A DNA stretch of 64,000 bases from Somniosus microcephalus (GCA_052327205.1 CM126207.1:165726001-165790000); one strand, 5' to 3'; positions 131 through 53,534 are shown, counted from the first letter of the stretch. Made by a program: numbers and translations. Notes: generated from the letters alone by a model not told the origin.

Positions 131-2044
131 GCACACCCCTCCTGTAGTGAAGGGGCACCGTCAAGGACCCGTTAACTTTAATCAGACACTCTGCGGCACC
201 GTACAGAAGTTGGATCCAGGCGAAAAAATGCATCCCAAAACCGAATGCACGCAGAGTCCCGAAGAGCTACTCATCATCCACCCTGTCGAATGGCTTCTCC
301 TGATCTGGGGAAAGGAAGGCGACCGACAGACCAGCCCTCTGGGAATGGTGGACCAGGTCCAGGACCAGATGGATGTTATCATGGATAGTCCGGCCCGGGA
401 CCATGTAGGACTGGTCGGGGTGGATCATGTGGGCCAGCACGGCGCCAAGGCGAGCAGACATGGCCCTGGCAAAAATGTTATAGTCCATGCTGAGGAGGGA
501 GACTGGGCGCCAGTTCTTAAGGAGGCGGAGATCGCCCCTCTTAGGCAGCAGGACAATAAGCGACCTGTGCCAAGAGAGGGGCATCTCCCCGGTCACCAAT
601 CTTTCCCCCAGGACCCACGCTTAGTCGCCCCGAAGACATCCCAGAATGGCCTGTGGAACTCCACGGTCAGTCCGTCCAGCCCCGGGGAGTTTCCCCTGGA
701 GAGCTGGCGGAGGGCGCCGATCAGCTCCGCCAGACTCAGAGGAGCGTCCAATTTTTCAGCGCTGTCCAGGGCGATCTTCGGCAGGTCCTCCCACAAAACT
801 CAGCTCGCATCCTCGCTGGACGGATCCGGAGGGAACAGAGCCCCATAATAGGCGTGGGTCTACCCAGTGATTCCCTCCATTTCCGAGACCAGAGATCCGT
901 CATCGGCCAGCAGCCCCAAGAGCTGCTTACGGACCCCCCATCTTTTTTCCAGCGAGTAGAAGAAGGGGGAGCCACAGTCCAGGTCCGGAGGATCTGGATC
1001 CGCGAACTCACGCCCGCGCCTCGGAACCCGACGAGCTACAGGTCCTTCAGCGCACCCTTCTTCTCTTCGTACACCCTCCGCAGGGCCGGGTCCTCGACGA
1101 CTTCACCGAGACGGGAATCCAGGTCGAGCACCTCCTTCTCTAACCGCCCGACCTTGGCCTGCCACCTCTTGGTCGACCCCTTCGCGTACTCCTGACAGAA
1201 GAGACGAACGTGAGCGTTGCCCACGTCCCACCATAGCCTGAAGGAGGGGAAGCCCCCCTGCTTCCTTCTCCAGTCGGCACAGAACCGACGAAATGAATCC
1301 CAGAACCACGCGTCCTCCAGCAGCAGGTTGTTAAAGTGCCAGTACGTGGAACACACCCGCACTCACAGCGGAACGAGCTCTGCCCACACCAGCTGGTGGT
1401 CCATGCACAGCACACAGGAGATGCACGCCCGGGAAATGTAAAGGTGGTCGATTCTGGACCCTCCTCCCCCAAACCTCACGCTAGTGAAGGCGCTGGAGTC
1501 AGGATGAAGATTTTGCCAGACGTCCACCAAGTCAAAGGAACCGACCAGGTCCCTGAACTTCTCCATCGCCGCTGGGCATCGCGGGGGACCCGGACGGTCC
1601 CTCACCTCGATGGTGCAGTTACAATCCCCCCCGAGGATGACGCACTTGCCCACGTCGATGGAGCCCAGAAGAGTGGACACTTCTTCAAAGATGCGCACTT
1701 GCTGCGCACCAGCCTGAGGGGCATACACGTTCACTAGGTGGAGTGGCACGCCCCCCAGTGACCTGCAGCAAACGGCCCGGCACGCGCTCCTTGACCCCCA
1801 AGATCTCTGGCTGAAAATGCGGTGCCAGCAAGTTAGCCACCCCACTGGAAACGCTGGAGAGGTGACTCATGCTGACCCCTCCTTGCCACTCCAGGAGTCA
1901 CGTGGCCTCATCTCCCGGAACGGTGTGGGTTTCTTGCAGGAAGCACACCGCATACTTCCCATCCCGAAGGACTGAAAGGTTATTAAATCTGTGGCGAGCC
2001 TCCCTGCTGCCGTTTATGTTGAGGCTGGCTATGGTTATCTTAAT
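131..2044 (-). pseudogene. Tx1 ORF2 pseudogene of copy A (APE endonuclease + N-terminal part of RT)
   Basis: ORF fragments 1685-1870, 1363-1845, 1036-1362, 593-796, 267-599 match the intact ORF2 in several frames; start codon mutated. Confidence 0.88.
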
Positions 2045-2075
2045 GTCAGAAGCATAGTGCAACCTCTACCTACAC

Positions 2076-4181
2076 GTAACGGGAGGAGGGTGCGCAGCTG
2101 CTAGTCAACCGCCACTCCCTCAGCAGCCCAGTGAGGAACGACCTGAGCCAACGCAGCTCGAGTGGGCTCACATCCGCATCACGCCCATGATCTTGACGGT
2201 GGCGCGGACCGACCCGATGAGCCAGGTCTTGTTTTGATGACCATGGCACACGCCAACAAAATCCGGGAGTTCCCTGATGGGAATGAGGGGAGACTCAGTG
2301 AGGTGCATGAGGTCATCCATCGCCTCGTCAGCGATGGAATCCAACTCATCCTCCGCGCCCATCACTGAGTCCCCTTCCTACTCCGGGGGGTCACCACCAG
2401 CGGCCGACCAGTCCGTCACGCAGTGCGCAGCGAACGGCTCGGCTGCATCGGCCGGCCCCGCCTCTGCCCGGATCCCACCCCAGGATTGGTGGCAGAGGAT
2501 TCCTCCCTGGGCTCCTCCAGGGGCGCCAGGCCAGATGACAGCAGCGGTTCGGAGTCCCCCTCTGCCCCAGACACCAAAACACCGGGAGAAATCGGGGCGA
2601 AAACAAATTGAAATTCCTCTAGGACGTCCGGCGCCAGAGACATAGTCAGGGGGCCTTCCTCCTCCTCGCCACCAGTCTCCGGCCCAGCGGATGGGGTGTC
2701 CTGGACTAAAATTTTGACCAGGTGACGCCGCACATGGGAAATATCCGGGTCGCATTGGGCGAGCACAGTTTCTTCGAGATCGCCCGAACCAGACCCCAGG
2801 CCGCCCGACCCGGCGAGGGGTAGCGGTATGGATAAAATATCTATTTCCAACGCGGGTTGTTCCGCGAACCCCCCCCATGGGCAGGGTCTTGTCACCGTCC
2901 CCTGGAGGCATGTGCTGGACAGACACATCTGCCTCAGCCTCCAGAGGGACAGGCGACCCCTGCCGATTGCTGGTGATGTTGACACTGGGGGGGGGGAACA
3001 GTACCCAGGGCGGGCGATGATTGCCCCTGCCCGGAGGGACCTTCCTCCTCCCGGTCCTCCTCCTCTTCCAGGGGGTCCTGCCTTCTTTTTAGCGCGGAGG
3101 GAGCAGGAGAGACCTCCATGTCTGCAGAGGCCTCCTCCTCTGCTCCCTCCAGCGGAGCAGGTTTGTCGGGTTCCTTGGGCCCAAGCCCGGCCGCAGGTAA
3201 TGGCGTTTCTGCTACGGCGGTTGTGGCCACAGGCTCAGGCACGAGGCCCCTCCCGCACTCGTCTGCCCTGACCAGCTCCGCGAGGAGCGCGGGTGTCAGG
3301 GGCTCTAAGTTTAATGGCCGGCCCACCACGGGGGAACCCGCACTGTGGTCTTTTGCTTTTCGCCGTGCCTTCCTTCCACCCGGATGCGCACGCTCCCCCC
3401 CGCCAGAGGCCTTGGTGGCATCGGCCTCTGAAGTCCACCGCGCATTGGTTGTATCGGACGTGTGGCCAGACCTGGGGGGAGGAGCAGTGGCGGCGCCAGC
3501 CTCGGCCGTACTAGATGACCTGGCAGCCTTGGAGGCAGGGCAGATATTCCTTATGTGCCCCACCTCCTTGCAGGCATGGCACCGCACACTGTCCGCCGGC
3601 CAAAAGGCACGATAGGTGGTCCCCTCGTGGAGGACGACAAAAGCCCCATTGGTGTCCTCCTCCCACGCCAGCTGAATAAAGAGCTGGCGCCGGAAAGAGA
3701 AGAGTTGCCGAAGGCTGGCTTCCCGGCAGCTGAGTGGGATAGGCGTGATCCCCGACCTCACCTCCCCAAGATGGCGTAAGTGGGGGAGGAGGAGCTCACC
3801 AGGAACAAAGGGCGGGACATTGGAAATCACCACCCTCTGTGTGGTGGCCTCGAGGGGGTCCACCAGCAGGAAGGTCCCGCCCATGGTGAGCCCCTTGGTG
3901 ACGGCCAGGGACACCGCCCGCTCCGACCCCAGGAAGAACACAGCCTTCCCGTACATTTTTGAGGCGGCAAGGATGGCTGCAGAGCCGACAACCACAGCCA
4001 TGGCCTTTACACACGCCTCAATGGTCATTGTTGGGTGGGTGTAGCTCTTCACACCAAGCTTTTTTGTTATTAGTGAGAAAGCTGATGGGGCAGCACAGGC
4101 AGCGGGAGCAGCCGCGGCTTTGGCTGCAACAACCGCATATGACCTAGCTGGCCCCGTCACCGGTGCTGAAGTAGATGCCAT
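2076..4181 (-). pseudogene. Tx1 ORF1 (nucleic-acid-binding, CCHC knuckle) of copy A, frameshifted
   Basis: 415-aa ORF 2934-4181 with SKMYGKAVFFL, VVISNVPPFV and CHACKEVGHIRNIC; continues in ORFs 2416-2985 and 2168-2365. Confidence 0.85.
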
Positions 4182-5198
4182 TATGGGGTGGTTTTTAAAA
4201 AACAGCTACACTCACACCAAGTCACAGGCCTTAAGATGTTGAAGATTGCCTCCGGTTTTTTAAATTCCACCCTTGAGCAGAGGGAGCTGTTAAATTGAAG
4301 GGACACCTCTCCCCTTATTGATTGTAATTGGGAGAGGGGCCTTCTCCCCTCTGCTCAAGTGGCAATAAATTAATAAGTAGAATAGATGTGCCTCTTGAGA
4401 GAAAGGCAGAGAGAGACAATGAGAGAGAGAAAGGGGGGTGGGAAGGAGGGAGGCCGCAAAGGCAGGGTCGCCACTCAGGATGGTGGGTGCGTGGGTGCTG
4501 GCAGGGGTGCACTCTCTGATAGAAAATAATGTCTCCAGTGGTATTCCTCTGGCAGGGGGAGAAGATGTCTTCGCCTGGGAAAGCTGGAGATGCCCCGGCT
4601 CAGTCCTGCAGCAGGTCTTAACGATGTTTAATGGAATAAAAGACTTCACCTAGGCAGCTCCAGCTATCACAGGCCAGGCAATAGAAGGGGCTGTTTGATA
4701 GTGGTGTGTGTGTGGCCTAGTGTTGTACAAGAGCCACACACACACACAGACACCCCTTGGTGTTCCGGTCTTCTTTCCTCCCCCCACCTACAGTACAAAG
4801 TCTTTTTGGAGAATGCACCAAATAACACCCACCTGCTGATGTTCAGTGAAGATGTTATCCTTCCCTCCTTCCAAGCAGTTGATGGTGGGTGTTGGTTGTT
4901 GCTTCTCTTCCCCTCTCTCCCTCCCCTGGAATGGAGGCCAATTTGGGGAGGCAGTGATGGAAAGGCCTCTCCTCTATTAGGTGTTGGCCTCCTTTTTCCT
5001 CTCCTCTCCTCTGTCCTCTCTCTCCAGGCACCTCAGTAGTCGCTGTTGTGGTAGTGGTGGTCTGTGGTTTCTCCTTCTTCTCCTCCTCTCCCTGGTCAAG
5101 GAGACCACCACTTTCCACTCTCCTTCAGCTCCAACCAGCAGCACAGATAGCAAGGCAGTGAATCAATAAAGCTGGGTAGGTCCAGTCCCTGTCTTGTC

Positions 5199-8100
5199 GT
5201 CTTTTAATTGGACCAAGTCAATTTAACAAATAAACTGTAATTAGGACTGTATAATTTTAAATAAACCTTAGCAAATCAAAATAAAATTTGGTTATCCAAA
5301 TCATTTATGCACTCCAGTCCCCGTGGCACCCACCGGTCATGGAAGTACTCGAGCGTGCCGGTGGACACCACGTGCTCCATCTCTAGGGCCACCCGGGCGC
5401 GAACATGGCCACGGAAGAGAGGGAGGCAATCTGGCTGGAGGACCCCCTCGACCGCCCGCTGCCTGGACCAATTCATGGCTTTTTTAGCCAGGCCCAGGAG
5501 CAGACCCACGAGGAGGTGCTCCAACCTGCCCGCACCCCCCCATCCCGGGTGACCATAGACCAAGAGCGTGGGACTGAAGTGCAACAAAAATCGAGGAGCA
5601 GCCCCTTCAAATAATGGAAGAGTTGCTGCAACCGCTCACATTCTGTATATATATGAAAAACAGACTCCTCCAGGCCGCAGAACAAACAGGCGGACTGGGA
5701 GTCCGTGAACCTAATAAAAATATATTGCACGGGACTGCCCCGTGCAACACCCTCCAGGCCAAGACCCAAAAGAACAGGGGAGGACTCCCGCATAGAGAGC
5801 CCTCCATTGGGTACCTCCACATCTGCCGGAAGGCAAGATGGCACGCCAAGGCGTGTCCGGAAGGCAGGCAAAGATGGCAAAGTGGAGAGTGTGCAGCAGC
5901 AGCCCGTACAGGGAACCCCTTCATGCGGAATGAAAAGGCACGGAGGGTATTTCCTCGAGACGGCTCAAGTTGTGAGGCAACGGTTCCCGATGGGAGGTTC
6001 GGGGCTGGACACCGATAAGGAATTCCGTCCGAACGGGGGAAAGCTCGGACGGGGTCCCCTCTGCCCGGATCCCACCCCAGGATCGGCGGCAGAAGATTCC
6101 TCCCTGGACTCCTCCGGGGGCGCCGGGCCAGAAGAAGGCAGCGGTTCGGAGTCCCCCTCTGCCCCAGATGCCAGAACGCACGGAGAAATCGGGGAGATAC
6201 AAATTGAAATTAATCCAGGATGTCCGACGCCCGAGGCACAGTCAGGGGCCCTTCCTCCACCTCACCACCAGTCTGCGACCCAGCGGATGGGGTGTCCTGG
6301 ACTAAAATATCAACCAGGTCGAGCAGCCCCTGGGAAATGTCCGGGTCGCATTCGGCGAGCTCAGTTTCTTCCAGCACGCCTGACACAGACCCCAGGCCGC
6401 CCGAACCGGCGAGTAGTAATGGTACTGATAAAATATCTATTTCCGCCGCGGGATGTTCCACGACCCCCCCCATGGGCAGGGCCTCGTCCCCATCCCCGGG
6501 AGGCACGTGCTGGAAAGACACATCTGCCTCAGCCTCCCGAGGGACAGGTGAGCCCTGCCGAATGCTGGTGATGGTGACAGCAGGGGGGGGAGGCGCAGTA
6601 CTCGCGGCGGGCAACGACTCCCCCTGCTCGGAGGGACATTCCTCCTCCCGGTCCTCCTCCTTTTCCAGGCGGTCGCACCTTCTTTTTAGCGTGGAGGGAG
6701 CGAGGGACACCGCCATGTCTGCAGGGGCCTCCTCCTCTGCTCCCTCTGGCGGAGCAGGTTTGTCGGGTTCCTCGGGCCCGAGCACGGCCGCAGGTATTTG
6801 TGTTTCCGCTACGGCGGTTGCGGCCACAGGCTCGGACACAAGGCCACTCATGCCCTCGTCTGCCCCGACCAACTGCGTGAGGAGCTCGGGTGTCAGGGGC
6901 TCTAAGTTTAGGGGCCGGCCCTCTGCGGGGGGACCTGCTCTGAGGTGTTTCATCTTACACCGCACCTTCCTTCCGCCCGGATGGGCTCCTTCCACCCCGC
7001 CGGAGGACCTGGTGGCATCGGCCTCCGACGGTGACCGCGCATCAGTGGCTCCCGATGCGTGGACAGATCCAGGGGGGGAAGTGGTGGCGGCGCCAGCCTC
7101 GGCCACGCCAGACGATCTGGCAGCCTTGGAGGTGGGGCAGTTTTTTCTGATGCGCCCCACCTCCTTGCAGGAGTGGCACCGAACACTGTCCGATGTCCAG
7201 AAGATGCGATAGGCAGTCCCCCCATGGAGGATGATGAAAGCCCCGTCGGTGTACTCCTCCCACGCCAGCTGAAAGAAAGCTGGCGCCGGAAGCAGAAAAC
7301 GTGGTGAAGGCTGGCCTCCAGGAAGCCGAGCGTGATGGGTGTAATCCCCGACCTCACCTCCCCAAGTTGGCATAAGTGGGGGAGGAGAAGCTCACCAGGA
7401 ACAAAGGGCGGGAGGAGCGAAATAACCACCCTCTGCGCTGTTGGCCTAGAGGTGGTCCACCGGCAGCAAGGTCCCACCCACGGTGTGCCCCTTGGTGATG
7501 GCCAGGGATACCACCCGCTCCGACCTCAGGAAGAACACAGCCTTCCCGTACATTTTTGAGGTGGCGAGGATGGCTGAAGGGCCGACAACCCCAGCCATGG
7601 CCTTTACACACGCCTCAATTGTCATTGTGGGGTGGGTGTAGCTCTTCACCCCAAGCTTTTTAGTTATTAAAGAGAAAGGTGACGGGGCCGCAGAAGCAGT
7701 AGGAGCAGCCGTGGCTGTGGCTGCCACCGCCACATATGGCCTAGCTGGCCCCGCCACCGGCGAAGAAGTAGACGCCATTATGAGGTGGTTTTTTAAAAAA
7801 AGAGCCACACTCACCCCAAGTCACAGGCCTTAAGATATTTAAGAATGGCCTCGGGTTATTTTTGAAGTCCTCTATTTGAGCAGACGGAGCTGTTAAATTG
7901 AAGGCACACCTCTCCCCTTATTGATTGGTATTGGGAGAGGGGCCTTCTCCCCTCTGCTCAAGCGGCAATTAATTAATAAGTAGAATAGAGGTGCTTCTTG
8001 AGAGAAAGGCAGAGAGAGAGACAAAGAGAGAGAGAGAGGCGGGGTGGGAAGGAGCGAGGCCGCAATGGCAGGGTCACCACTCAGGATGGTGGGTGGGTGG

Positions 8101-9180
8101 GTGCCGGCAGGGGTGCACTCTCCGGTGGGAAATAAAATCTCTAATGGTGTTCTTCTAGCAGGGGGAGAAGATGTCTTCACCTGGGAACGCTGGAGACGCA
8201 CAGGCTCAGTCCTGCACCAGGTCTTAACGATGTTTAATGGAATAAAAGACTTCACCTAGGCAGCTCCAGCTGTCCCAGGCCAGGCAATAGAAGAGGGTGT
8301 TTGATAGTGGTGTGTGAGGCCTAGTGTTCTACAAGAGGCAGCACGGTGGCATAGTGGTTAGCACTGTTGCCTCACAGCGCCAGGGACCCAGGTTCAAATC
8401 CTGCCTCGGGTGACTGTCTGTGTGGAGTTTGCACATTCTCCCCGTGTTCACGTTGGTTTCCTCCGGGTGCTCCGGTTTCCTCCCACAGTCCAAAGATGTG
8501 CGGGTTAGGTTGATTGAGCATGATAAAAAATTGGCCCTTAGTGTTAGGGGGGATTAAATACGTGGGGATAGGGCTTGGGTGGGATGGCTGTTGGTGTAGG
8601 GACCGGGTTCTAGGGTTTGGATGATCAGCCATGATCTCGTTGAATGGCAGAGCAGGCTCGAAGGGCCGAATGGCCTACTCCTGCTCCTATCTTCTATGTT
8701 TCTATGTTTCTAAGAGCCACACACACACACAGGCACCCCTTGGTGTTCCGGTCTTCGTTCCTCCCCCCACCTACAGTACAAAGTCTTTTTGGAGAGTGCA
8801 CCATATAACACCCTCCTGCAGATGTTCAGTGAAGATGTTATCCTTCCCTCCTTCCAAGCAGTTGAAGGTGGGAGTTGGTTGTTGCTTCTCTCCCCTCTCT
8901 CCCTCTCCTGGAATGTAGGCCAATTTGGGGAGGCAGTGATGGAACGGCCTCTCCTCTGGTAGCTGTTGGCCTCCTTTTTCCTCTCCTCTCCTGTGTCCTC
9001 TCTCTCCAGGCACCTCAGTAGTCGCTGTTGTGGTAGTGGTGGTCTGTGGATTCTCCTTTTTCTCCTCCTCCCCCTGGTCAAGGTGACCAAAACTTTCCAC
9101 TCTCCTTCAGCTCCAAACAGCAGCACAGAGAGCAATGCAGTGAATGAATAAAGCTGGGTCGGTCCAGTCCCTGTTTTGTC
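5199..9180 (-). mobile_element. Tx1 copy B, internally deleted (5'UTR + most of ORF1 joined to the last ~0.8 kb of ORF2 + 3'UTR)
   Basis: ORF1 ATG at 7778; junction ~6055-6060 switches from ORF1 (GIRAE) to ORF2 C-terminus (PSELSPVRTEF); ORF2 stop 5276-5278; 3' end TAAAAGAC abuts copy A 5' end. Confidence 0.9.
8338..8711 (+). mobile_element. tRNA-derived SINE (V-SINE/HE1-like) with CR1-type tail, inserted in the copy B 5'UTR
   Basis: A-box TGGCATAGTGG, B-box GGTTCAAATCC (8391-8401), GGAGTTTGCACATTCTCCCCGTG body, tail GGCCGAATGGCCTACTCCTGCTCCTAT-(TTCTATGT)n; AAGAG duplicated at 8333-8337 and 8712-8716; absent from the other 5'UTR copies. Confidence 0.9.
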
Positions 9181-9257
9181 CTCTTTTAATTGGATCAAGT
9201 AAATTAAACAAATAAACTATAATTAGGACTGTAAAACTTTAAAAAAACCTTAGTAAA

Positions 9258-12200
9258 TCAAATTAAAATTTAGTTATCCAAATCAATTATGCACTCCAGT
9301 CCCTGTGGCGCCCACCGCTCATGGAAATACTCGAGCGTGCCGGCGGACACCACGTGCTCCATCTACAGGGCTACCCGGGTGCGAACATGGCCCCGGAAGA
9401 GAGGGAGGCAATCTGGATTAACGACACCCTCAACCACCCGCTGCCTGGACCAATTGATGGCTTTTTTAGCCTGGCCCAGGAGCAGACCCACGAGGAGGTC
9501 CTCCAACCTGCCCGCTCCCCTCCGCCCCGGGTGACTGTAGATCAAGAGCGTGGGACTGAAGTTCAACCAAAATTCGAGGAGCAGCCCCTTCAAATAATGG
9601 AAGAGGGGCTGCAACCTCTCACATTCTGTATATATATGAAAAACGGACTCCTCCAGGCCGCAGAACAAACAGGCGGCCTAGGAGTCCGTGAACCTACTTA
9701 AAAATATATTGCACGGGACTGCCCTGTGCAACACCCTCCAGGCCAAGTCCCCAATAGAACAGGAGAGGACTCCCGCATAGAGAGCCCTCCATTGGGGACC
9801 TCCGCCACCGCCGGAAGGCAAGGCGGCATGCCAAGGTGTGTCTGGATGGCAGGCAAAGATGGCAAAGTGGAGAGTGTGCAGGAGCAGCCCATACAGGAAA
9901 CACCTCCATGCGGAATGAAAAGGCACAGAGGGTATTTCCTTGAGACTGCTCAAGTTGTGAGGCGCCGGTTCCTGAGGGGAGTTTCAGGGCTGGACTCCGA
10001 TAAGGAATTCCGTCCGAACGGGTGAAAGCTCGGACGGGATCGCCCCATGTGCTTGAGCCGCCTTGATACACCTTGTGGCGCCGGGGCACAGCGTCGCTTT
10101 CATCAACTCAATGGCATTGACCGCGAGCTGGACGTTGGCCCAAGACATGTGCCGCGCCAACTCCTGTGGCGCCATCCAGCCCGGTCCTCTGACATCAAGC
10201 AGGTCCCCGACTCTAGTCACCTTGCCAGGCACAGCCCTGCGCTCGGCCAGCCACATGAACCCGCGGATGTGGAGGTGCGGATTCCTGAACAGTGGCTCCT
10301 GAAGGACAGCCACCATTCCTTACGGGGGAGAGCTCCGCCTGGAAGCGACATAGTTCCAAACCCATAGCAGATCCTGGTAGAAGACAGGCAGCTCCCACAG
10401 GCTGGCACGTGTGCCGCCCACTTCCAAAAACAGGAGCTGCATGTCATAATTGAGGCCGTGCAGCTGGCAGAAAAAATAAGTCACCAGCGCACAGCATCTC
10501 AGAGGATTCTCGAAGTTCAGGTATCTCTGCAGCATCTGAAGACGGAAAGTTGCAGCATGGGTGCAGAGGCACACCAGCACCTGACTGCCTCCCTAAGCAG
10601 GAGACTCAGAACCGTGGCAGAGACCCAGTGCTTCCTTTTGTCCCAGAAGAAGTCGATGAGCTTCTTCAGTATCTTGGCGACAAACGCAGGGGGAGGGATC
10701 AAAGTGACCTACCGGTACCACAACATGGTGGCCACCAGTTGGTTTATGACCATCGTTCGACCCCTGTAGGACAACAGTCGGAGCAGTCCTGTCCAGCGTC
10801 CTAAGCGAGTGGTGAGTTTGGCCTCCAACTCTTGCCAGTTCGCCAGCCAGGCGTCCTCGGCAGGGCTAAGGTAGACTCCCAAGTAGAGGAGGTGCGTGGT
10901 GCTCCAGGCGAAGGGCCTGAACTCCTCCAGCAGGGAGTCCACACGCCACTGACCCACCAGGAGTCCGGAACATTTCTCCCAGTTGATCTTGGCGGAGGAT
11001 GCTTCTGAGTAAATCTGCTGGCATTCCCGCATCCTCCGCATCCTCCGCATGTCAGCGGGATCCGTGACCGTGAGGAGCACGTCATCGGCGTAAGCTGAGA
11101 GGACCACCTCCACGCCCGGCCCTTGCAGAGCCAGTCCCGTCAACCTCTTCCACAAGAGGCGCAGGAAAGGCTCTACAGAAATGGCGTATAACAGGGCAGA
11201 CATGGGGCATCTCTGATGCACCCCCTCCCGAAGCGAAGGGGCGCCATCAACGACCTGTTAACTTTAATCAGACACAGAAGTCGGATCCGGGTGACAAAAT
11301 GCATCCCGAACCCGAAGGCGCGCAGAGTCCCGACGAGATACTCATGATCTACCCTGTGGAAAGTCTTCTCCTGATCCAGGGAAAGGAAGGCGACCGATAG
11401 ACCAGCCCTGTTGGAATGGTGAACCAGGTGACGGCCCAGATAGATGTTGTCATGGATGGTCCGGCCTGTGACCATGTCGGGCTGGTTGGGGTGGAACATG
11501 TGGGCCAGCACGGCACCAAGGCGAGCAGACATGGCCCTGGCAAAAATTTTGTAGTCCGTGCTTAGGAGGAAGACCAGGCGCCATTTCTTAAGGAGGCGGA
11601 GATCGCCCTTCTTAGGCAGCAGGACAATAATCGCCCTGCGCCAAGAGAGGGGCATCTCCCTGGTCACCAAACTTTCCCCCATGACCCACGCGTAGTCACC
11701 CCCCAAGACGTCCCAAAATGCCCTGTGGAACTCCACAGTCAGCCCGTCAAGCCACGGGGACTTTCCCCTGGAGAGCTGGCGGAGGGCGCCGGTCAGCTCC
11801 TCCAGACTCAGAGGAGCGTCCAATTTTTTGGTACCGTCCAGGCCGACCTTCGGCACGTCCTCCCACAAAACTCTGCACGCATCCACGCTGGACAGATCCG
11901 GAGAGAACAGAGCCCTGTAATAGCACGGGCCTGTGCGCTGATTCCCTTTGGATCCGAGACCAGAGATCCGTCATCGGCCAGCAGCCCCAAGAGCTGCTTA
12001 CGGACCCCCATCTTTTTTCCAGCGAGTAGATGCAGGGGAAGCCGCGGTCCAGGTCCCGCAGGAAATGGATCCGCGACCTCACGTACGCACCTCGTGTCCC
12101 AATGAGCTGCAGGTCCTTCAGCGCGCCCTTCTTCTCTTCGTACACCTTCCGCAGGGCCGGGTCCTCGACGACTTGACTGAGGTCGGACTCCAGGTCGAGC

Positions 12201-14173: not shown

Positions 14174-14181
14174 GTCTTACT

Positions 14182-14199
14182 TGGAGGTCCCACCGAGAT
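14182..14199 (+). promoter_or_regulatory. Primer-binding site complementary to tRNA-Gln
   Basis: TGGAGGTCCCACCGAGAT, 18-nt complement of the vertebrate tRNA-Gln 3' end; candidate splice donor CG/GTAAGT at ~14217. Confidence 0.9.
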
Positions 14200-18799: not shown

Positions 18800-18818
18800 A
18801 TCTTGAAAGACTTAAACA

Positions 18819-19136
18819 ATGAAGAAGTTACTTATATTTTGTATACTAAACGGACTACTGAGTCTAATATGCCAGGGAGATGGGGAAAGATCCCGAAAGA
18901 AACGAGAATTACACATAAAAACTTTTTTGTACATGTCTTACAAATATGCTAAAGCTGGGGGCAAATCCAGTTGTCGGGTCTGTGCCCAAATAGCTATTCA
19001 CACCACGGGAGGGATTACGATTGAATAGGATAAAATTTTAAGGGCCAGATTGGGAACAACAGGCTAGGAAAAAGAAAGAGGACTCCAGGAGCACTTGAGC
19101 TCATGAAGACCCGTTGGCAATGGAGAAGTTGAGGGA
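18819..19136 (+). pseudogene. env: ERV env N-terminal fragment
   Basis: Signal peptide MKKLLIFCILNGLLSLIC directly after pol; SSCRVC resembles the class I env CWxC motif; truncated at the junction back to Tx1. Confidence 0.7.
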
Positions 19137-19331
19137 CCTTGCCACTCCAGGAGCCACGTGGCCTCGTCTCCCGGAATAGTGTGGTTTTCTTGCAGGAAGC
19201 ACACCACATACTTTCCGTCCCGAAGGACCGAAAGGTTATTAAATCTGCGGCGAGCCTCCCTGCTGCCATTGATGTTGAGGCTGGCTATGGTTGTCTTCAT
19301 ATCAGAAGCATAGTGCAACCTCTACCTACAC

Positions 19332-21475
19332 CTAACGGGGGGAGGGAGCGCAGCTGCTAGTCGACCGCCACTCCCTCAGCAGCCCAGTGAGGAACGACCT
19401 GAGTCTATGCAGCTCGAGAGGACTCATGTCCTGGTCCGCACCCATGATTTTGACGGTGGCACAGACCGATCCAATGAGCAGTGCCAGCTCTGACCACCTG
19501 TCGAGGGCCAGCCGGGTCTTGTTTTGACGACCCAGGCACGCGGCCATAAAATCCCGGAGCTCCCTGACGGGAATGAGGGGAGACCAGGCGAGGGGCACGA
19601 GGTCATCCATCACCTCGTCGGCGATGGACTTCAACTCGTCCTCCGCGCCCATCACCGAGTCCCCGTCCTCCTCTGGGGGGTCGCCACCAGCGGCCGACCC
19701 ATCCGTCGTGCAGTGCGCAGCGAACGGCTGGGCCGCATCAACTGGTCCCACCTCTGCCCAGATCCCACCCCCAGGATTGGTGGGAGAGGATTCCTCCCTG
19801 GGCTCCTCCGGGGGAGCCATGCCAGAAGACGGTGGCAGTTCGGAGTCCCCCTCCGCCCCAGATGCCAGAACGCCCAGAGAAATCGGGGAGAAAACAAATT
19901 GAAATTCCACCAGGATGTCCGGTGCCAGAGGCACAGTCAGGGGGCCTTCCTCCTCCTCATCACCAGTCTCCGACCCAGTGGATGGGGTGTCCTGGACTAA
20001 AATTTGAACCAGGTCGAGCAGCCCCTGGGAAATGTCCGCCTCGCATTGGGTGTGCTCAGTTTCTTCCAGCACGCCCAACCCAGACCCCAGGCCGCCCGAC
20101 CCGGCGAGGGTTAACGGTACTGATAAAATATCTATTTCCACTGCGGGTTGTTCCGCGACCCCCCCCATGGGCAGGGTCTCGTCCCCATCACCGGGAGGCA
20201 CGTGCTGGACAGACACATCTGCCTCAGCCTCCCAAGGGACAGGTGACACCTGCCGAACGCTGGTGATGGTGACAGCAGGGCGGGGGGGGGCGCATAACCC
20301 GCGGTGGGCGATGACTCCCCCTGCTCGGAGGGATCCTACCTCCTCCCGGTCCTCCTCCTCTTCCAGGGGGTCACACCTTCTTTCTAGCGCGGAGGGAGCG
20401 AGGGAGACCTCCATGTCTGCAGAGGCCTCCTCCTCTGCTCCATCTGGCGGAGCAGGTTTGTCGGGTACTTCGGGCACGAGCCCGGCCGCAGGAATTGGCA
20501 TTTCCGCTACGGCGGTTGTGGCCACGGGCTCAGGCACGAGGACCCTCCCGCCCTCGTCTGCCCCGACCAAATCCGCGAGGAGGGCGGGTGTCAGGGGCTC
20601 TAAGTTTAGGGGCCGGCCCTCCGCCGGGGGACCCGCCCTGAGGTGTTTCATCTTACGCCGTTCCCTCCTTCCGCCCAGACGGGCTCCCTCCCCCCCGTCG
20701 GAGGCCCTGGTGGCGTCGGCCTCCGACGTCGACCGAGCATCAGTGGCTCCCGACGCACGGACTGATCAGTGGGGGGAGCGGCGGCAGCGCCAGCCTCAGC
20801 CAAACCAGACGATCTGGCAGCATTGGAGGCGGGGCAGTATTTTCTGATGTGCCCCACCTCCTTGCAGGCGTGGCACCGCACACCGTCCGACATCCAGAAG
20901 ACATGATAGGCGGTCCCCTCGTGGAGGATGATGTAAGCCCCGTCGTTGTCCTCCTCCCGCGCCAGCTGGATAAAATGCTGGCGCCGGAAGGAGAAAACGT
21001 GGTGAAGGCTGGCCACATGGAAGCCGAGTGAGATGGGTGTAAACCCCGACCTCACCTCCCCAAGACGGCGTAAGTGGGGGAGGAGGAGCTCACCAGGTAC
21101 AAAGGGCAGGAGGTTGGAAATAACCACCCTCTGCGCGGCGGCCTCGAGGGTGTCCACCGGCAGGAAGGTCCCGCCCACGGTGAGCCCCTTGGTGACGGCC
21201 ACGGACACCGCCCGCTCCGACCTCAGGAAGAACACAGCCTTCCCGTACATTTTTGAGGTGGCGAGGATGGTTGAAGGGCCGACAACCCCAGCCATGGCCT
21301 TTACACACGCCTCAATTGTCATTGTGGAGTGGGTGTAGCTCTTCACCCCAAGCTTTTTAGTTGTTAAAGAGAAAGGTGACGGGGCCGCAGAAGCAACGGG
21401 AGCAGCCGTGGCTGTGGCTGCCACCGCCACATATGACCTAGCCGGCCCCGACACTGGCGAAGAAGTAGACGCCAT
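19332..21475 (-). pseudogene. Tx1 ORF1 of copy C, split by a 1-bp deletion near 20767
   Basis: ORFs 20648-21475 (CHACKEVGHIRKYC) and 19332-20651; copies A and B read through this point. Confidence 0.88.
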
Positions 21476-22505
21476 TATGGGGTGCTTTTTTCAAAAAAGA
21501 GCTGTGCTCACCCCAAGTCACAAGCCTTAAGATATTTAAGAATGACTTCTGGTTCTTTTTGAAGTCCTCTATTTGAGCAGAGGGAGCTGTTTAAAATGAA
21601 GGCAAACCTCGCCCTTTATTCATTGAAACTGGGAGATAGGCCTTCTCCCCTCTGCTCAACAGGCAATTAATTAATAGATGGAAAGGAGGTGCCTCTTGAG
21701 AGAGAGGTATAGAGAGACAAAGAGAGGGAGAGAGGGTGGTGGGAAGGAGGGAGCCCGCAAGGGCAGGTATGCCACTCAGGATGGAGGGCGGGTGGGTGTC
21801 GGAAGGGGTGCACCCTCCGATGGAAAAACAACGTCTCGGAATGGTGTTCTTCTGGCAGGGGGAGAAGATGTCTTCGCCTGGGAAAGCTGGAGAATGCCCA
21901 GGCTCAGTCCCACACCAGGTCTTAACGATGTTTGATGGAATAAAAGACTTCGCCTAGGCAGCTCCAGCTGTCCCAGGCCAGGCAATAGAAGGGGGTGTTT
22001 GATAGTGGTGTGTGTGGCCTAGTATTCTACAAGAGCCACACACACACACAGACACCCCTTGGTGTTCTGGCCAGTCTTCTTTCCTCCCCCCCACCTACAA
22101 TACAAAGTCTTTTGGAGAGTGCACCAAATAACACCCACCTGCTGATGTTCATTTGGAGATGTTATCCTTCCCTCCTTCCAAGCAGTTGATGGTGGGTGTT
22201 GGTTGTTGCTTCTCTCCCCTCTCTCCCTCTCCTGGAATGGAGGCCAATTTGGGGAGGCAGTGGTGGAAAGGCCTCTCCTCTGGTAGATGTTGGCCTCCTT
22301 TTTCCCTCTCCTCACCTCTGTCTTCTCTCTCCAGGCACCTCAGTAGTCGCTGTTGTGGTAGTGGTGGTCTGTGGTTTTTCCTTCTTCTCCTCCTCTCTCT
22401 GGTCAAGGAGACCACCACGTTCCACTCTCCTTCAGCTCCAACCAGCAGCACAGAGAGCAAGGCAGTGAATGAATAAAGCTGGGTCGGTCCAGTCCCTGTC
22501 TTGTC
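20339..22505. repeat. 2167-bp direct repeat, copy 1 (ORF1 N-terminal part + 5'UTR)
   Basis: Matches 27505-29671 at offset 7166 at both ends; roughly 15-20 substitutions counted by eye. Confidence 0.93.
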
Positions 22506-22567
22506 CTCTTTTTATAAACCCAAAAATAAACCCTTAAACAAATAAACCCTTTAAATGACCCGATTAA

Positions 22568-25500
22568 TCAAATTAAAATTTGGCCTCTTAAATCGATTAC
22601 GCACTCCAGTCCCCGCGGCGCCCACCGGTCACGAAAGAGCTCGAGCTCGCCGGCGGACACCGCGTGCTCCATCTCCAGGGCCACCCGGCCGCGAACATGG
22701 CCGCGGAAGAGAGGGAGGCAATCCGGCCGGACGACCCCCTCGGCCGCCCGCTGCCTGGACCAATTAATGGCTTTCTTGGCCAGGCCCAGGAGCAGGCCCA
22801 CGAGGAGGTCCTCCGACCTGCCCGCACCCCTCCGCACCGGGTGACCGTAGATCAAGAGCGTGGGACTGAAGTGCAACCAAAATTTGAGGAGCAGCCCCTT
22901 CAAATAGTGAAAGAGGGGCTGCAACCTCCCACACTCGACATACACATGGAACACGGACTCCTCCAGACCACAGAACAAACAGGCGGCCCGGGAGTCCGTG
23001 AACCTACTTAAAAACCTATTGCACGGGACTGCTCTGTGCAACACCCTCCAGGCCAAGTCCCCAATAGAACAAGGGAAGACTCCCGCATAGAGAGCCCCCC
23101 ATTGGGGACCTCCGCCTCCGCCGGAAGGTAAAACGGCACGCCACGGCGTGTCCGGACGGCAGGCGAAGATGGCAAAGTGGAAGGTGTGCAAGAGCATCCC
23201 GTACAGGAAACCCCTCCGCGCAGAATGGAAAGGCACGGAGGGCGTCTCCTCGAGACGGCTCAAGTTGTGAGGCACCAAACCCCTAGGGGAGCTTTGGGGC
23301 AGGGCGCCGATATGGAATTCCGTCCAAACGGGAGTAAGCCCGGGCGGGATCGCCCCACGCGCTTGAGCCGCCTCGATACACCTCGCGGCGCCAGGGCGCA
23401 ACCTCGCCTTCACCGCCTCGATGGCATCGACCGCGAGCCGGACGTTGCCCCACGACATACGCCGCGCCAACTCCTCCGGCGCCATCCAGCCCGCTCCTCC
23501 GCCATCGAGTAGGTCCCCGACTCTAGTCACCCTGCCAGGCACAGCCCTCCGCTCCGCCAGCCGCCCAAACTCACGGACGCGGAGGTGCGGATTCCTGAAC
23601 AGCGGCTCTCGAAGGACAGCCGCCATTCCTGACGGGGGAGAGCTCCGCCTGGAGGCGACGGAGTTCCAAACCCATAGCAGTTCCTGGTAAAAGACAGGCA
23701 GCTCCTGCAGGCTGGCACGCCTGCTGCCCACTTCCAGAAACAGGAGCTGCATGTCGTAATTGAGGCCGTGCAGCTGGCGGAAGAAATACGTCACCAGCGC
23801 ACGCCATCTGGGAGGATTCTCGACGTACAGGTATCTCTGCAGCGTCTGAAGACGGAAAGTCGCAGCCTGGGTGCGAAGGCACACCAGCGCCTGACCGCCC
23901 TCCCTAAGCGGGAGACTCAGAACCGCGGCAGCGACCCAGTGTATCCTATTGTTCCAGAAGAAGTCGACGAGCTTCTTCTGTATCTTGGCGACAAACGCAG
24001 GGGGGGGGATCAGAGTAACCAACCGGTACCACAACATGGCAGCCACCAGTTGGTTTATGACCAACGCCCGACCCCTGTAGGACAACACTCGGAGCAATCC
24101 TGTCCAGCGTCCTAAGCGAGCGGTGACTTTGGCCTCCAGCTCGTGCCAGTTCGCCGGCCAGGCGTCCTCGGCCGGGCTGAGGTAGACTCCCAAGTAGAGG
24201 AGGTGCGTCGTACTCCAGGCGAAGGGCCTGAACTCCTCCGGCAGAGAGTCCACCTGCCACTGACCCACCAGGAGTCCAGAACATTTCCCCCAGTTGATCC
24301 TGGCGGAGGATGCGTCCGAGTAAATCTGCTGGCATTCCCGCATCCTCCGCAAGTCAACGGGATCCGTGACCATGAGGAGCACGTCATCGGCGTAAGCCGA
24401 GAGGACCACCTCCACGCCCGGCCCTTGCAGAGCCAATCCCGCCAACCTCTTCCGCAAGAGGCGCAGGAAAGGCTCCACGCAAATGGCATATAACTGGCCG
24501 GACATGGGGCATCCCTGACGCACCCCCCTCCCGAAGCGAAGGGGCGCCGTCAAGGACCCGTTAACTTTAATCAGACACTCCGCGGCAGCGTACAGAAGTC
24601 GGATCCGGGCGACGAAATGCGTCCCGAACCCGAATGCGCGCAGAGTCCCGAAAAGATACTCGTGATCCACCCTTTCGAACGCCTTCTCCTGATCCAGGGA
24701 AAGGAAGGCGACCGACAGACCAGCCCTCTGGGAATGGTGGACCAGGTCCCGGACCAGATGGATGTTATCGTGAATGGTCCGGCCCGGGACCGTGTAGGAC
24801 TGGTCGGGATGGATCATGTGGGCCAGCACGGTGCCAAGGCGAACGGACATGGCCCTGGCAAAGATTTTGTAATCCGTGCTGAGGAGGGAGACCGGGCGCC
24901 AGTTCTTAAGGAGGCGGAGATCACCCCTCTTAGGCAGCAGGACGATCAGCGCCCTGCGCCACGAGAGGGGCATCTCCCCGGTCGCCAAACATTCCCCCAG
25001 GACCCGCACGTAGTCGCCCCCCAGGATGCCCCAGAATGCCCTGTGGAACTCCACGGTCAGCCCGTCCAACCCCGGGGACTTCCCCCTAGAGAGCTGGCGG
25101 AGGGCGCCGGACAGCTCCTCCAAACTCAGAGGAGCGTCCAATTTTTCGGCGCCCTCCAGGCCGACCTTCGGCAGGTCCTCCCACAAAACTCTGCGCGCTT
25201 CCTCGCTGGACGGATCCGGAGAGAACAGAGCCCCGTAATAGGCACGGGTCTCCGCGCGGATTCCCTCCGGATCCGAGACCGGAGATCCGTCGTCGGCCAG
25301 CAGCTCCAAAAGCTGCTTACGGACCCCCCGTCTTTTTTCCAGCGAGTAGAAGAAGGGGGAGCCGCGGTCCAGGACCCGCAGGAACTGGATCCGCGACCTC
25401 ACGTACGCGCCTCGGGACCCGACGAGCCGCAGGTCCTTCAGCGCGCCCTTCTTCTCTTCGTACGCCAGCCGCAGGGCCGGGTCCTCGGCGACTTGACCGA

Positions 25501-26467
25501 GACGGGACTCCAGGTCGAGCACCTCCTTCTCCAACTGCCCGACCCGGGCCTCCCGCCTCTTGGTCGACCCCTTCGCGTACTCCTGACAGAAGAGATGGAT
25601 GTGAGCCTTGCCCACATCCCACCATAGCCTCAAGGAGGGGAAGCCCCCCTGCTTCCTTCTCCAGCCGGCCCAGAACCGACCGAACGAATCCCGGAACCGC
25701 GCGTCCTCCAGCAGCAGGTTGTTAAAGTGCCAGTACGCGGACCCCCCCCCGGCGCGCGGCGGCACGAGCTCCGCCCACACCAGGTGGTGGTCCGTGCACG
25801 GCACCGGCCGCACGGAAGCCGCCGGAACGCAGGAGACGTACGCCCGGGAAATGTAGAGGCGGTCGATCCTGGACGCTCCTCCCCCAGACCTCACAAAAGT
25901 GAAGGCGCTGGAGTCGGGATGGATATTACGCCAGACGTCCACCAAGTCGAGGGACCCGACCAGGTCCCTCAGCTTCCCCATCGCCGCTGGGCATGGCTGG
26001 GTACCCGTGCGGTCCCTCGCCTCGAGGGTACAATTAAAATCCCCCCCGAGGATGACGCACTCGCCCGCGTCGATGGAGCCCAAAAGAGTGGACACTTCTT
26101 CAAAGAAGCGCGCTTGCTGCGCACCAGCCTGAGGGGCGTACACGTTCACTAGATGGAACGGCACGCCCCCCAGGCGAACAGTGACCTGGAGCAAGCGGCC
26201 CGGCACGAGCTCCTTGACCCCCAAGATCTCCGGCTGAAAATGCGGGGCCAACAAGATAGCCACCCCACTGGAAACACTGGAGAGGTGACTCATGTTGACC
26301 CCTCCTTGCCACTCCAGGAGCCACGTGGCCTCGTCTCCCGGAACGGTGTGGGTTTCTTGCAGGAAGCACACCGCATACTTCCCGTCCCGAAGGACCGAAA
26401 AGTTATTAAATCTGCGGCTAGCCTCCCTGCTGCCGTTGACGTTGAGGCTGGCTATGTTTATCTTCAT
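22568..26467 (-). CDS. Tx1-clade ORF2 polyprotein (APE endonuclease, reverse transcriptase, C-terminal CCHC zinc finger), 1299 aa, uninterrupted
   Basis: SLNVNG, FLQETH, GGDFNC, SRIDRLY, TDHH (EN); KSPGLDG, NWRPVSLL, DQEKAF, GVRQGCPMSG, AYADD, YLG (RT); CLFCGLEESVFHVYVEC. Confidence 0.96.
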   Translation of the reverse strand: MKINIASLNVNGSREASRRFNNFSVLRDGKYAVCFLQETHTVPGDEATWLLEWQGGVNMSHLSSVSSGVAILLAPHFQPEILGVKELVPGRLLQVTVRLGGVPFHLVNVYAPQAGAQQARFFEEVSTLLGSIDAGECVILGGDFNCTLEARDRTGTQPCPAAMGKLRDLVGSLDLVDVWRNIHPDSSAFTFVRSGGGASRIDRLYISRAYVSCVPAASVRPVPCTDHHLVWAELVPPRAGGGSAYWHFNNLLLEDARFRDSFGRFWAGWRRKQGGFPSLRLWWDVGKAHIHLFCQEYAKGSTKRREARVGQLEKEVLDLESRLGQVAEDPALRLAYEEKKGALKDLRLVGSRGAYVRSRIQFLRVLDRGSPFFYSLEKRRGVRKQLLELLADDGSPVSDPEGIRAETRAYYGALFSPDPSSEEARRVLWEDLPKVGLEGAEKLDAPLSLEELSGALRQLSRGKSPGLDGLTVEFHRAFWGILGGDYVRVLGECLATGEMPLSWRRALIVLLPKRGDLRLLKNWRPVSLLSTDYKIFARAMSVRLGTVLAHMIHPDQSYTVPGRTIHDNIHLVRDLVHHSQRAGLSVAFLSLDQEKAFERVDHEYLFGTLRAFGFGTHFVARIRLLYAAAECLIKVNGSLTAPLRFGRGVRQGCPMSGQLYAICVEPFLRLLRKRLAGLALQGPGVEVVLSAYADDVLLMVTDPVDLRRMRECQQIYSDASSARINWGKCSGLLVGQWQVDSLPEEFRPFAWSTTHLLYLGVYLSPAEDAWPANWHELEAKVTARLGRWTGLLRVLSYRGRALVINQLVAAMLWYRLVTLIPPPAFVAKIQKKLVDFFWNNRIHWVAAAVLSLPLREGGQALVCLRTQAATFRLQTLQRYLYVENPPRWRALVTYFFRQLHGLNYDMQLLFLEVGSRRASLQELPVFYQELLWVWNSVASRRSSPPSGMAAVLREPLFRNPHLRVREFGRLAERRAVPGRVTRVGDLLDGGGAGWMAPEELARRMSWGNVRLAVDAIEAVKARLRPGAARCIEAAQARGAIPPGLTPVWTEFHIGALPQSSPRGLVPHNLSRLEETPSVPFHSARRGFLYGMLLHTFHFAIFACRPDTPWRAVLPSGGGGGPQWGALYAGVFPCSIGDLAWRVLHRAVPCNRFLSRFTDSRAACLFCGLEESVFHVYVECGRLQPLFHYLKGLLLKFWLHFSPTLLIYGHPVRRGAGRSEDLLVGLLLGLAKKAINWSRQRAAEGVVRPDCLPLFRGHVRGRVALEMEHAVSAGELELFRDRWAPRGLECVIDLRGQILI

Positions 26468-26497
26468 TTCAGAAGCACAACCAACCCCTACTTAAAC

Positions 26498-28641
26498 CTA
26501 ACGGGGGAAGGGAGGGCGGCCGCTAGCCGACCGCCACTCCCTTAGCAGCCCGGTGAGGAATGCCCGGAACCGACACAGCTCGGACGGGCTCACGCCCGTG
26601 TCCGCACCCATGGTCTTGTAGGCGACGCGGGCCGACCCGATGAGCAGCGCCAGCCCCGACCATCTGTCGAGGGCCTGCTGGGTCCAGCGGCGACCCTGGC
26701 TCGTGGCCACAAATTCCCGGAGCTCCCTGATGGGAATAAGAACGAGGGGGGTCCCGGCGAGGGGCGCGAGGTCATCCATCGCCTCGTCGGCGACGGACTC
26801 TAAGTCCTCCTCCGCCCCCACCACCGAGTCCCCGTCCTCCTCCGGGGGGTCGCCACCGGCGGCCGAACCGTCCACCACGCAATGCACATCGGGCGGCCCG
26901 GCCGCGACAGCCGGCCCCGCCTCCGCCCGGATCCCACCCCCAGGATCGGTAGCGGAGGATTCCCCCCCGGGCTCCTCTAGGGGGGCCGGGCCAGCAGGCG
27001 GCGGCGGTTCGGAGATCCCCTCCGCCCCAGGCACCGGAACGGCCGGAGAGATCGGAGAATACAAAAACCGGACCTCCTCCAAGTCGCCCGGCGCCGGAGA
27101 CACAGACCGAGGGCCCTCCTCAGCGATGCCACTGGCCTCCGACCCAGCAGACGGGGGAAAATTCTGACACACCTCGACGAGGTCGAGCAGCACCTGGGAA
27201 AAATCCGGGTCGTTCTGGGCGAGCTCATCCTCAGACGACTCGCCCGACCCGGTCCCCTGGCCGCCCGACCCGTCGAGGGGCAATGCCACCAGCAATGGCT
27301 CAATAACCGCCGTGGGTTGTTCCGCGACCCCCCCCACGGGCAGGGTCTCGTCCCCATCCCCGGGAGGCACGAGCTGGGCAGACGCTTCTGCCTCAGCCTC
27401 CCCAGGGACAGGCGACCCCTGCCGTTCGCCCGTAATGGTGTTAGCGGTGGGGTGGGGCGCAGTGCCCGCGGCGGGCGACGACTCCCCCTGACCGGAGGGA
27501 CCTTCCTCCTCCCGGTCCTCCTCCTCTTCCAGGGGGTCACACCTTCTTTCTAGCGCGGAGGGAGCGAGGGAGACCTCCATGTCTGCAGAGGCCTCCTCCT
27601 CTGCTCCATCTGGCGGAGCAGGTTTGTCGGGTACTTCGGGCACGAGCCCGGCCGCAGGAATTGGCATTTCCGCTACGGCGGTTGTGGCCACGGGCTCAGG
27701 CACGAGGACCCTCCCGCCCTCGTCTGCCCCGACCAAATCCGCAAGGAGGGCGGGTGTCAGGGGCTCTAAGTTTAGGGGCCAGCCCTCCACCGGGGGACCC
27801 GCCCTGAGGTGTTTCATCTTACGCCGTTCCCTCCTTCCGCCCGGACGGGCTCCCTCCCCCCCGTCGGAGGCCCTGGTGGCGTCGGCCTCCGACGTCGACC
27901 GAGCATCAGTGGCTCCCGACGCACGGAGTGATCAGTGGGGGGAGCGGCGGCAGCGCCAGCCTCAGCCAAACCAGACGATCTGGCAGCATTGGAGGCGGGG
28001 CAGTATTTTCTGATGTGCCCCACCTCCTTGCAGGCGTGGCACCGCACACCGTCCGACATCCAGAAGACATGATAGGCGGTCCCCTCGTGGAGGATGATGA
28101 AAGCCCCATCGTTGTCCTCCTCCTGCGCCAGCTGGATAAAATGCTGGCGCCGGAAGGAGAAAACGTGGTGAAGGCTGGCCACATGGAAGCCGAGTGAGAT
28201 GGGTGTAAACCCCGACCTCACCTCCCCAAGATGGCATAAGTGGGGGAGGAGGAGCTCACCAGGTACAAAGGGCAGGAGGTTGGAAATAACCACCCTCTGC
28301 GCGGCGGCCTCGAGGGTGTCCACCGGCAGGAAGGTCCCGCCCACGGTGAGCCCCTTGGTGACGGCCACGGACACCGCCCGCTCCGACCTCAGGAAGAACA
28401 CAGCCTTCCCGTACATTTTTGAGGTGGCGAGGATGGTTGAAGGGCCGACAACCCCAGCCATGGCCTTTACACACGCCTCAATTGTCATTGTGGAGTGGGT
28501 GTAGCTCTTCACCCCAAGCTTTTTAGTTATTAAAGAGAAAGGTGACGGGGCCGCAGAAGCAACGGGAGCAGCCGTGGCTGTGGCTGCCACCGCCACATAT
28601 GACCTAGCCGGCCCCGCCACTGGCGAAGAAGTAGACGCCAT
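26498..28641 (-). pseudogene. Tx1 ORF1 of copy D, split by the same 1-bp deletion (near 27933) as copy C
   Basis: ORFs 27814-28641 (275 aa) and 26498-27817 (439 aa); GGA TCT of copy B reads GA TCA here. Confidence 0.88.
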
Positions 28642-29671
28642 TATGGGGTGCTTTTTTCAAAAAAGAGCTGCGCTCACCCCAAGTCACAAGCCTTAAGATA
28701 TTTAAGAATGACTTCTGGTTCTTTTTGAAGTCCTCTATTTGAGCAGAGGGAGCTGTTTAAAATGAAGGCAAACCTCGCCCTTTATTCATTGAAACTGGGA
28801 GATAGGCCTTCTCCCCTCTGCTCAACAGGCAATTAATTAATAGATGGAAAGGAGGTGCCTCTTGAGAGAGAGGTATAGAGAGACAAAGAGAGGGAGAGAG
28901 GGTGGTGGGAAGGAGGGAGCCCGCAAGGGCAGGTATGCCACTCAGGATGGAGGGCGGGTGGGTGTCGGAAGGGGTGCACCCTCCGATGGAAAAACAACGT
29001 CTCGGAATGGTGTTCTTCTGGCAGGGGGAGAAGATGTCTTCGCCTGGGAAAGCTGGAGAATGCCCAGGCTCAGTCCCACACCAGGTCTTAACGATGTTTG
29101 ATGGAATAAAAGACTTCGCCTAGGCAGCTCCAGCTGTCCCAGGCCAGGCAATAGAAGGGGGTGTTTGATAGTGGTGTGTGTGGCCTAGTATTCTACAAGA
29201 GCCACACACACACACAGACACCCCTTGGTGTTCTGGCCGGTCTTCTTTCCTCCCCCCCACCTACAATACAAAGTCTTTTGGAGAGTGCACCAAATAACAC
29301 CCACCTGCTGATGTTCATTTGGAGATGTTATCCTTCCCTCCTTCCAAGCAGTTGATGGTGGGTGTTGGTTGTTGCTTCTCTCCCCTCTCTCCCTCTCCTG
29401 GAATGGAGGCCAATTTGGGGAGGCAGTGGTGGAAAGGCCTCTCCTCTGGTAGATGTTGGTCTCCTTTTTCCCTCTCCTCACCTCTGTCTTCTCTCTCCAG
29501 GCACCTCAGTAGTCGCTGTTGTGGTAGTGGTGGTCTGTGGTTTTTCCTTCTTCTCCTCCTCTCTCTGGTCAAGGAGACCACCACTTTCCACTTTCCTTCA
29601 GCTCCAACCAGCAGCACAGAGAGCAAGGCAGTGAATGAATAAAGCTGGGTCGGTCCAGTCCCTGTCTTGTC
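27505..29671. repeat. 2167-bp direct repeat, copy 2
   Basis: Near-identical to 20339-22505; similarity drops sharply below 27505. Confidence 0.93.
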
Positions 29672-30089: not shown

Positions 30090-30421
30090 CAGGGTTGATG
30101 ATGAGTGGTTGTTTCCCCTGGCTGGAATGTCCAGAACTAGGGGCATAGTCTCAGGATAAGGGGTAGACCTTTTAAGACTGAGATGAGGAGGAATTTCTTC
30201 ACTCACGTTTGTGAATCTTTGAAATTCTCTGCCCCGGACGGCTGTGATTGCTGAGTGTTTGAGTATATTCAAGGCTGAGATAGGTAGATTGTTGGACTTT
30301 AGGGGAATCAAGGGATATGGAGATCGGGCGGGAAAGTGGAGTTGAGGTCGATGATCAGCAATGATCTTATTGAATGGCGGAACCGTATGGCCTACCCCTG
30401 CTCTTATTTCTTATGTTCTTA
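30090..30421 (+). mobile_element. CR1/HER1 LINE 3' fragment
   Basis: GAGATGAGGAGGAATTTCTTC (EMRRNFF) and TTCTTATG tail. Confidence 0.8.
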
Positions 30422-53517: not shown

Positions 53518-53534
53518 TCCTTTTTCTTTCTCTA

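Follow-up and report, generated by a model that had tools for sequence, protein, structure and literature searches.

A head-to-tail array of four Tx1L-lineage LINEs in Somniosus microcephalus, with unit heads apparently derived from downstream neighbours

A 64,000-nt stretch of the Somniosus microcephalus genome (GCA_052327205.1, CM126207.1:165726001-165790000; referred to here as the window) carries on its minus strand four long interspersed nuclear elements (LINEs) of the Tx1L lineage arranged head to tail, which we call D, C, B and A from the upstream to the downstream end and which were delimited by self-BLAST and by alignment to the upstream unit. Unit D (22506..29671, 7166 nt) has the youngest body, belonging to another subfamily and bearing its own 3′ untranslated region (UTR), behind a C-derived head. 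Unit C (9181..22505) is full length, decayed and split by a retroviral fragment. Unit B (5199..9180) is A-like in its head, to about 7893-7873, then C-like in its body with a C-type 3′ UTR, and has suffered an internal deletion of 3.57 kb at about 6055. Unit A (131..5198) consists of the leader, the first open reading frame (ORF1) and the first half of ORF2, and ends within the reverse transcriptase (RT) region at 131, where it adjoins 130 nt of unrelated sequence. The array is real and has four units, as stated in a preliminary description of the locus, but none of the four retrotransposons is whole: A is cut, B deleted, C split and D frameshifted in ORF1. The 3′ end of unit A and the downstream end of the array lie outside the window. 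The sequence that cuts unit A (1-130) begins with TG on the minus strand and is possibly the end of another inserted element, in which case the array may continue to the left of the window; it also holds a word that we take to be CTCF-like.

All four units start at the identical nucleotide and have a complete head. A 17-mer marks the unit starts at 29671, 22505, 9180 and 5198 (minus strand; 0, 0, 1 and 0 mismatches, respectively), and apart from these it matches the window at up to four mismatches only twice, both times with four, while the chance expectation at up to one mismatch is about 3e-4 matches per 128 kb. A 30-mer from the unit start had no match in bacterial and archaeal genomes, as expected. 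The preliminary description had reported 3′ ends of the form AAAAGA(G/C) fused without spacer to the unit start at 22505/22506, 9180/9181 and 5198/5199, and we find them at the D/C junction (22499..22512, with a D-type 3′ end), the C/B junction (9174..9187) and the B/A junction (5192..5205), all on the minus strand. The unit-start motif was also confirmed at the array end, 29671, where the bordering upstream flank ends in GAGGCACAGA. The motif is present at all four starts, but is only the beginning of a leader of ~1030 nt common to the four units. Likewise, the reported difference in 3′ UTRs holds for D but not between B and C, which share one type. Two 3′ UTR types are thus fused to the unit-start nucleotide across the three junctions. 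Because a single start nucleotide has received two 3′ UTR types, from units of different subfamilies and very different ages, our results support the earlier proposal that one site was used repeatedly by site-specific insertion.

By protein comparison, the array elements are assigned to the Tx1 clade of retrotransposons that lack long terminal repeats (LTRs; non-LTR elements), Tx1L lineage. The open ORF2 of D (22568..26467, minus strand) is predicted to encode an apurinic/apyrimidinic endonuclease-like (APE) domain, an RT and a C-terminal zinc knuckle; the Pfam families Exo_endo_phos (1.2e-13) and RVT_1 (3.1e-35) match above the cut-off and zf-RVT (5.6e-4) below it. Its best match among 8000 candidates scored is the Xenopus laevis Tx1L ORF2 (50% identity over 1295 aligned residues, 99% coverage), with which the QETH, GGDFN, RID, DH and YADD motifs align, and it has one change at an invariant RT position, D598E. 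Among the named matches checked, identities were highest for Heterodontus (73%) and Hemitrygon (68%). An RT tree was built from 24 rows (25 were hand-picked from 240 listed matches and one was dropped for coverage); in it, D pairs with a Hemitrygon sequence (support 99/98) within an eight-row clade of D, Tx1L, turtle, sturgeon and ray sequences (support 100/99). The hairpin loop of the endonuclease, a structure implicated in target selection in the Tx1L enzyme, which is sequence-specific in vitro (PMC1950540), is three residues shorter than in Tx1L and lacks the RDGH tip; that of the Heterodontus protein is likewise three residues shorter. ORF1 of D (26498..28641, minus strand) contains a CxxC..H..C motif and has five homologues at 57-64%, with no Pfam match. 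In-frame stops in ORF2 number 0 in 1298 codons of D, 6 in 1269 of C, 7 in 634 of A and 1 in 254 of B, which bears out the observation that only the upstream-most copy has an open ORF2. Nevertheless, D is not an intact element, since its ORF1 is split by a one-base frameshift near 27935.

The divergence between copies noted in the preliminary description is general, but it fails for the heads of D and C. The head of D (27505..29671, minus strand), consisting of the leader and the N-terminal half of ORF1, differs from that of C (20339..22505, minus strand) by 17 substitutions in 2167 sites (99.2% identity) and no indel; beyond a switch point between 27550 and 27491, 676 of 4855 sites differ (14%). 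C carries the same ORF1 frameshift as D, and neither A nor B has it. In the N-terminal part of ORF1, residues invariant in the outgroups are changed to a similar extent in D (11/120, of which nine are also changed in C), C (12/120), B (14/120) and A (14/120). In ORF2 the corresponding counts are 10/378 for D, 45/366 for C, 25/190 for A and 12/73 for B; the ORF1 and ORF2 counts use different outgroup sets, for which A, B and C serve as the control. The contrast in decay between head and body is significant for D (Fisher p = 0.007) and there is none for C (p = 0.62). With a wider outgroup set for the first half of ORF2, D has changed at 1 of 149 invariant residues, C at 17 and A at 21, although a few of the C changes sit at frameshifts and are possible alignment effects. 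Non-synonymous changes predominate among the private changes in this part of ORF1 (N-terminal; 18, against 6 synonymous), with a bias from GC to AT, as in decayed copies. Because the ORF1 of D has decayed like that of the old copies, the frameshift is shared and ORF2 is little changed, D combines an old head of C type with a young body that belongs to another subfamily. The divergence between the two heads amounts to 0.39% per copy and agrees, with a wide error, with the slight decay of the D body. C-specific changes, among them +1 and +2 insertions that compensate each other, are clustered at ~20280-20340, exactly at the D/C switch point.

Unit B shows a comparable switch, from A-like to C-like at unit position 914-934, which gives a head of ~0.92 kb. 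C is the outlier up to position 914 (58 C-only and 27 A-only events), and A is the outlier beyond 934 (183 against 90 events; 358 informative events in total, permutation p = 0.0002). In D and B alike, the shared tract begins at the unit start and its source is the downstream neighbour. Both units are chimeric, with heads derived from downstream neighbours, a feature absent from the preliminary description. C-only changes are also fewer in unit positions 1-400 (2.0%) than in 401-914 (7.2%), which is suggestive of a possible third borrowed head, in the first ~400 nt of C, but constraint on the leader could give the same pattern. A and B have both lost one base in a G run of ORF1 (~2481 and ~6078), where B is otherwise C-like; recurrent slippage or another small exchange could account for this.

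The body of D is by far the youngest in the array (p = 4e-7 against C), and no differences in decay were found among C, B and A (pooled Fisher p = 0.52 and 0.74). Growth at one end, as first proposed, therefore stands for the arrival of D, the latest and upstream unit, which is one event only; A, B and C are unordered, and a full age gradient along the array is not supported. Since the head of D derives from C and D adjoins the upstream flank, the arrangement is consistent with C as the foremost unit until the arrival of D.

The upstream flank (29672..30090, plus strand) is the probable host of the target site. It is single copy in the window, contains E-box, CCAAT and TATA-like words and a 49-nt tandem repeat, and has features that we take to resemble part of an LTR. 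One copy of a dispersed repeat adjoins it at 30090. The target classes known for the site-specific Tx1 families Tx1L, Keno, Kibi, Koshi and Tx1-Mar (genes for snRNA, tRNA or rRNA; TC or TTC microsatellites) were not found at the array: the window contains no Rfam match at the gathering score and no tRNA, the matches in 28600-30200 are all sub-threshold, and there is no microsatellite array at the junctions. A ribozyme like that of hepatitis delta virus was not detected at the start of any of the four units on either strand, using a relaxed descriptor of our own without a positive control, and the first 200 nt of the unit fold no better than shuffled sequences (z = -0.73). From the start of D runs an open frame of 118 codons (29318-29671, minus strand) with a hydrophobic stretch and no ATG near its start; a coding leader was rejected, as this frame has no match among 1.84 billion representatives and is broken in A. 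A short target-site duplication (TSD) between copies could be the first bases of the shared leader.

Other insertions have occurred in and around the array. A broken endogenous retrovirus fragment of 6.2 kb (12933..19136, plus strand) lies inside the endonuclease region of C, with a loss of 53 nt of Tx1 sequence. It has an LTR-like start, a gag zinc knuckle, an RNase H closest to that of murine leukaemia virus and an integrase; it lacks a second LTR, the ORFs scanned gave no RT match, and it is a passenger rather than part of the stacking mechanism. A GC-rich segment with imperfect inverted ends in its 5′ region (~13449-14135) is possibly a non-autonomous DNA transposon. The leader of B contains a dispersed-repeat insert of 376 nt (8341..8716, no strand assigned), parts of which match repeats located at 40.9-57.2 kb. 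One family of dispersed repeats has several decayed copies (66-88% identity), at 30089-30421, 40869-42408, 47090-48086 and 52232-58045, and a direct repeat of 777 nt (89% identity) is found at 54793-55569 and 60480-61255. At 36569-36874 (plus strand) there is an immunoglobulin C1-set exon with AG/GT splice sites (top PDB match UrIg2 V-C1-C2-C3, E 1.2e-10), which places the array about 7 kb from a gene of the immunoglobulin superfamily.

We consider it somewhat better than even, with a probability of roughly 0.55, that the array was built by repeated insertion at the same site ahead of the resident copy, with the newcomer acquiring the resident's head. A site-specific LINE of the Tx1L lineage would repeatedly nick one bond where the upstream flank meets the resident 5′ end; the bottom strand would be cut at this boundary and reverse transcription primed there, with each insertion landing in front of the resident copy. 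The site would survive in that the sequence downstream of the nick, whether a short duplication of the target or the first bases of the element, remains in place. Units A, B and C would date from one old period, and D, from another subfamily, would have arrived much later. As the DNA just downstream of the nick would be homologous to the incoming element, the 5′ part of the newcomer would have become a copy of the resident head, with tracts of 2.17 kb acquired by D and ~0.92 kb by B. One route of integration would have the cDNA anneal to the resident head and the top strand cut there, making the head a target duplication of great length. Transfer of the head during integration seems slightly more likely than transfer afterwards.

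Several points weigh against this history. The window is a single locus, within which we found neither further copies of the family nor an empty site. In the absence of an age order among A, B and C, the polarity of growth is read from D only, and the youngest unit would lie upstream by chance in one case in four, given at least four candidate positions. The specificity of Tx1L is not simply transferable to an endonuclease whose hairpin loop is three residues shorter. Tracts of 0.9-2.2 kb far exceed both the duplications of 10-20 bp usually described for APE LINEs (PMC6895275) and the templated insertions of L1, typically <250 bp (10.1101/2024.08.27.596794). Finally, allelic or unequal crossover predicts identical chimeras and breakpoints.

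The last point leads to the strongest competing explanation, which we regard as a serious but lesser prospect: site-specific stacking would be correct, and the borrowed heads would result from later, ordinary recombination. D would then have inserted at full length, and a crossover or conversion with an allele lacking D, in which the flank is joined to C, would have replaced its head. B would be an unequal-crossover duplicate of a C-A dimer, leaving only two head-to-tail junctions made by retrotransposition; as B could be such a product of C and A, the earlier statement that this is not tandem amplification was too strong. The 3′ UTR common to B and C and their equally frequent private changes in the 3′ part (32 and 33 of 773 sites) agree with this, as does the non-CpG distance of 6.7% between the A and B leaders, which is near the 6.3-8.2% between the B and C bodies, as one crossover predicts. 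Each switch point also immediately precedes a divergent patch, at which branch migration would be halted, and R1 dimers and arrays are described as expanding by unequal exchange (10.1101/158386). However, B and C have no stop codon in common in the regions that both retain and their listed frameshifts differ, so that any crossover must have been early. Moreover, the exchange would have had to occur at about 10-14% divergence, twice and with the same polarity.

Two further explanations are very improbable. One dispenses with sequence specificity and invokes a single chance tandem insertion, duplication at the DNA level and later replacement of one body by gene conversion from an element elsewhere; the target preference of the family is indeed inferred from one locus, with no other insertion in the window, but the distinct 3′ UTR of D terminates exactly at the junction, a conversion event would need to span 5 kb and take in a poorly alignable 3′ UTR, and the lineage is known for target specificity (PMC4494074). 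The other, no more credible, is an assembly artefact in which a haplotype switch placed two alleles of one head in tandem: a difference of 0.8% over 2167 nt is within the allelic range, but at the D/C junction a clean 3′ end is joined to the canonical nucleotide, the remainder of D is 14% from C (676/4855), and the chimera in B is far too old for such a switch.

Stacking is not new in kind, as the mechanism has already been published for R1 of Drosophila, whose incoming copies enter the TSD at the resident's 5′ end (PMC2718515); heads of kilobase length derived from a neighbour are the added feature. R1 is likewise an APE LINE that re-inserts at a target regenerated 5′ of the resident and forms polar head-to-tail arrays. 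Its site, however, is in 28S rDNA, with a 14-bp TSD (33 nt in the X array) between young, near-identical copies, whereas the Somniosus array is associated with no rRNA or other Rfam family, its copies differ by about 10-15%, and what is duplicated are tracts of the element itself, 0.9-2.2 kb long. Tx1L of Xenopus laevis has the same two ORFs, the same order of endonuclease, RT and zinc knuckle and the same RT clade, but the target here is not Tx1D-like as far as seen, and the array is stacked head to tail with chimeric heads. In crocodilians, the Tx1-Mar, SINEU-3, Tx1-8_Crp and Tx1-4_AMi families indicate Tx1-clade machinery that targets other transposons, including LTR retrotransposons, and tandem SINEU-3 copies sandwiching a TSD were interpreted as sequential insertions (PMC4494074); unlike our elements, these families cluster with Keno, and the available text of that study reports neither stacks of full-length LINEs nor head transfer. 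Zepp and ZeppL of green algae, L1-group LINEs, build arrays by targeting existing copies (PMC8226300), but these arrays consist mostly of the 3′ ends of 5′-truncated nested insertions, while all four units here have a complete head. For L1, pairing of the cDNA with homologous DNA close by can lead to the duplication of short tracts (10.1101/2024.08.27.596794), but such chimeric or templated insertions are described as sporadic and usually <250 bp, with no fixed site or array building. We found no Tx1 array with neighbour-derived heads in cartilaginous fish among the titles and abstracts that our literature searches showed; a prior description may exist.

How APE LINEs complete the 5′ junction is still open (PMC6895275), and an array with DNA homologous to the cDNA downstream of the nick lends itself to testing homology-driven joining, for which it offers tracts of kilobase length and datable breakpoints. 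It also presents a new candidate target for an APE endonuclease of the sequence-specific kind whose hairpin loop is unlike that of Tx1L, and a possible route for the swapping of 5′ ends seen in LINE evolution. Should the heads have been exchanged by later recombination, the finding would be of modest interest, as an R1-like array from a new clade and a new host. More tentatively, and with some doubt, we suggest that the Tx1 lineage may use its own 5′ end as a self-renewing landing site, where a 5′-truncated cDNA is possibly completed by DNA-level copying of the resident head. If this is true, every unit would look full length, promoter leaders would be inherited along the array and not from the RNA donor, each insertion would create a fresh chimera of head and body, and the site would remain usable across subfamilies while the old copies decayed about ten times more than the newest.

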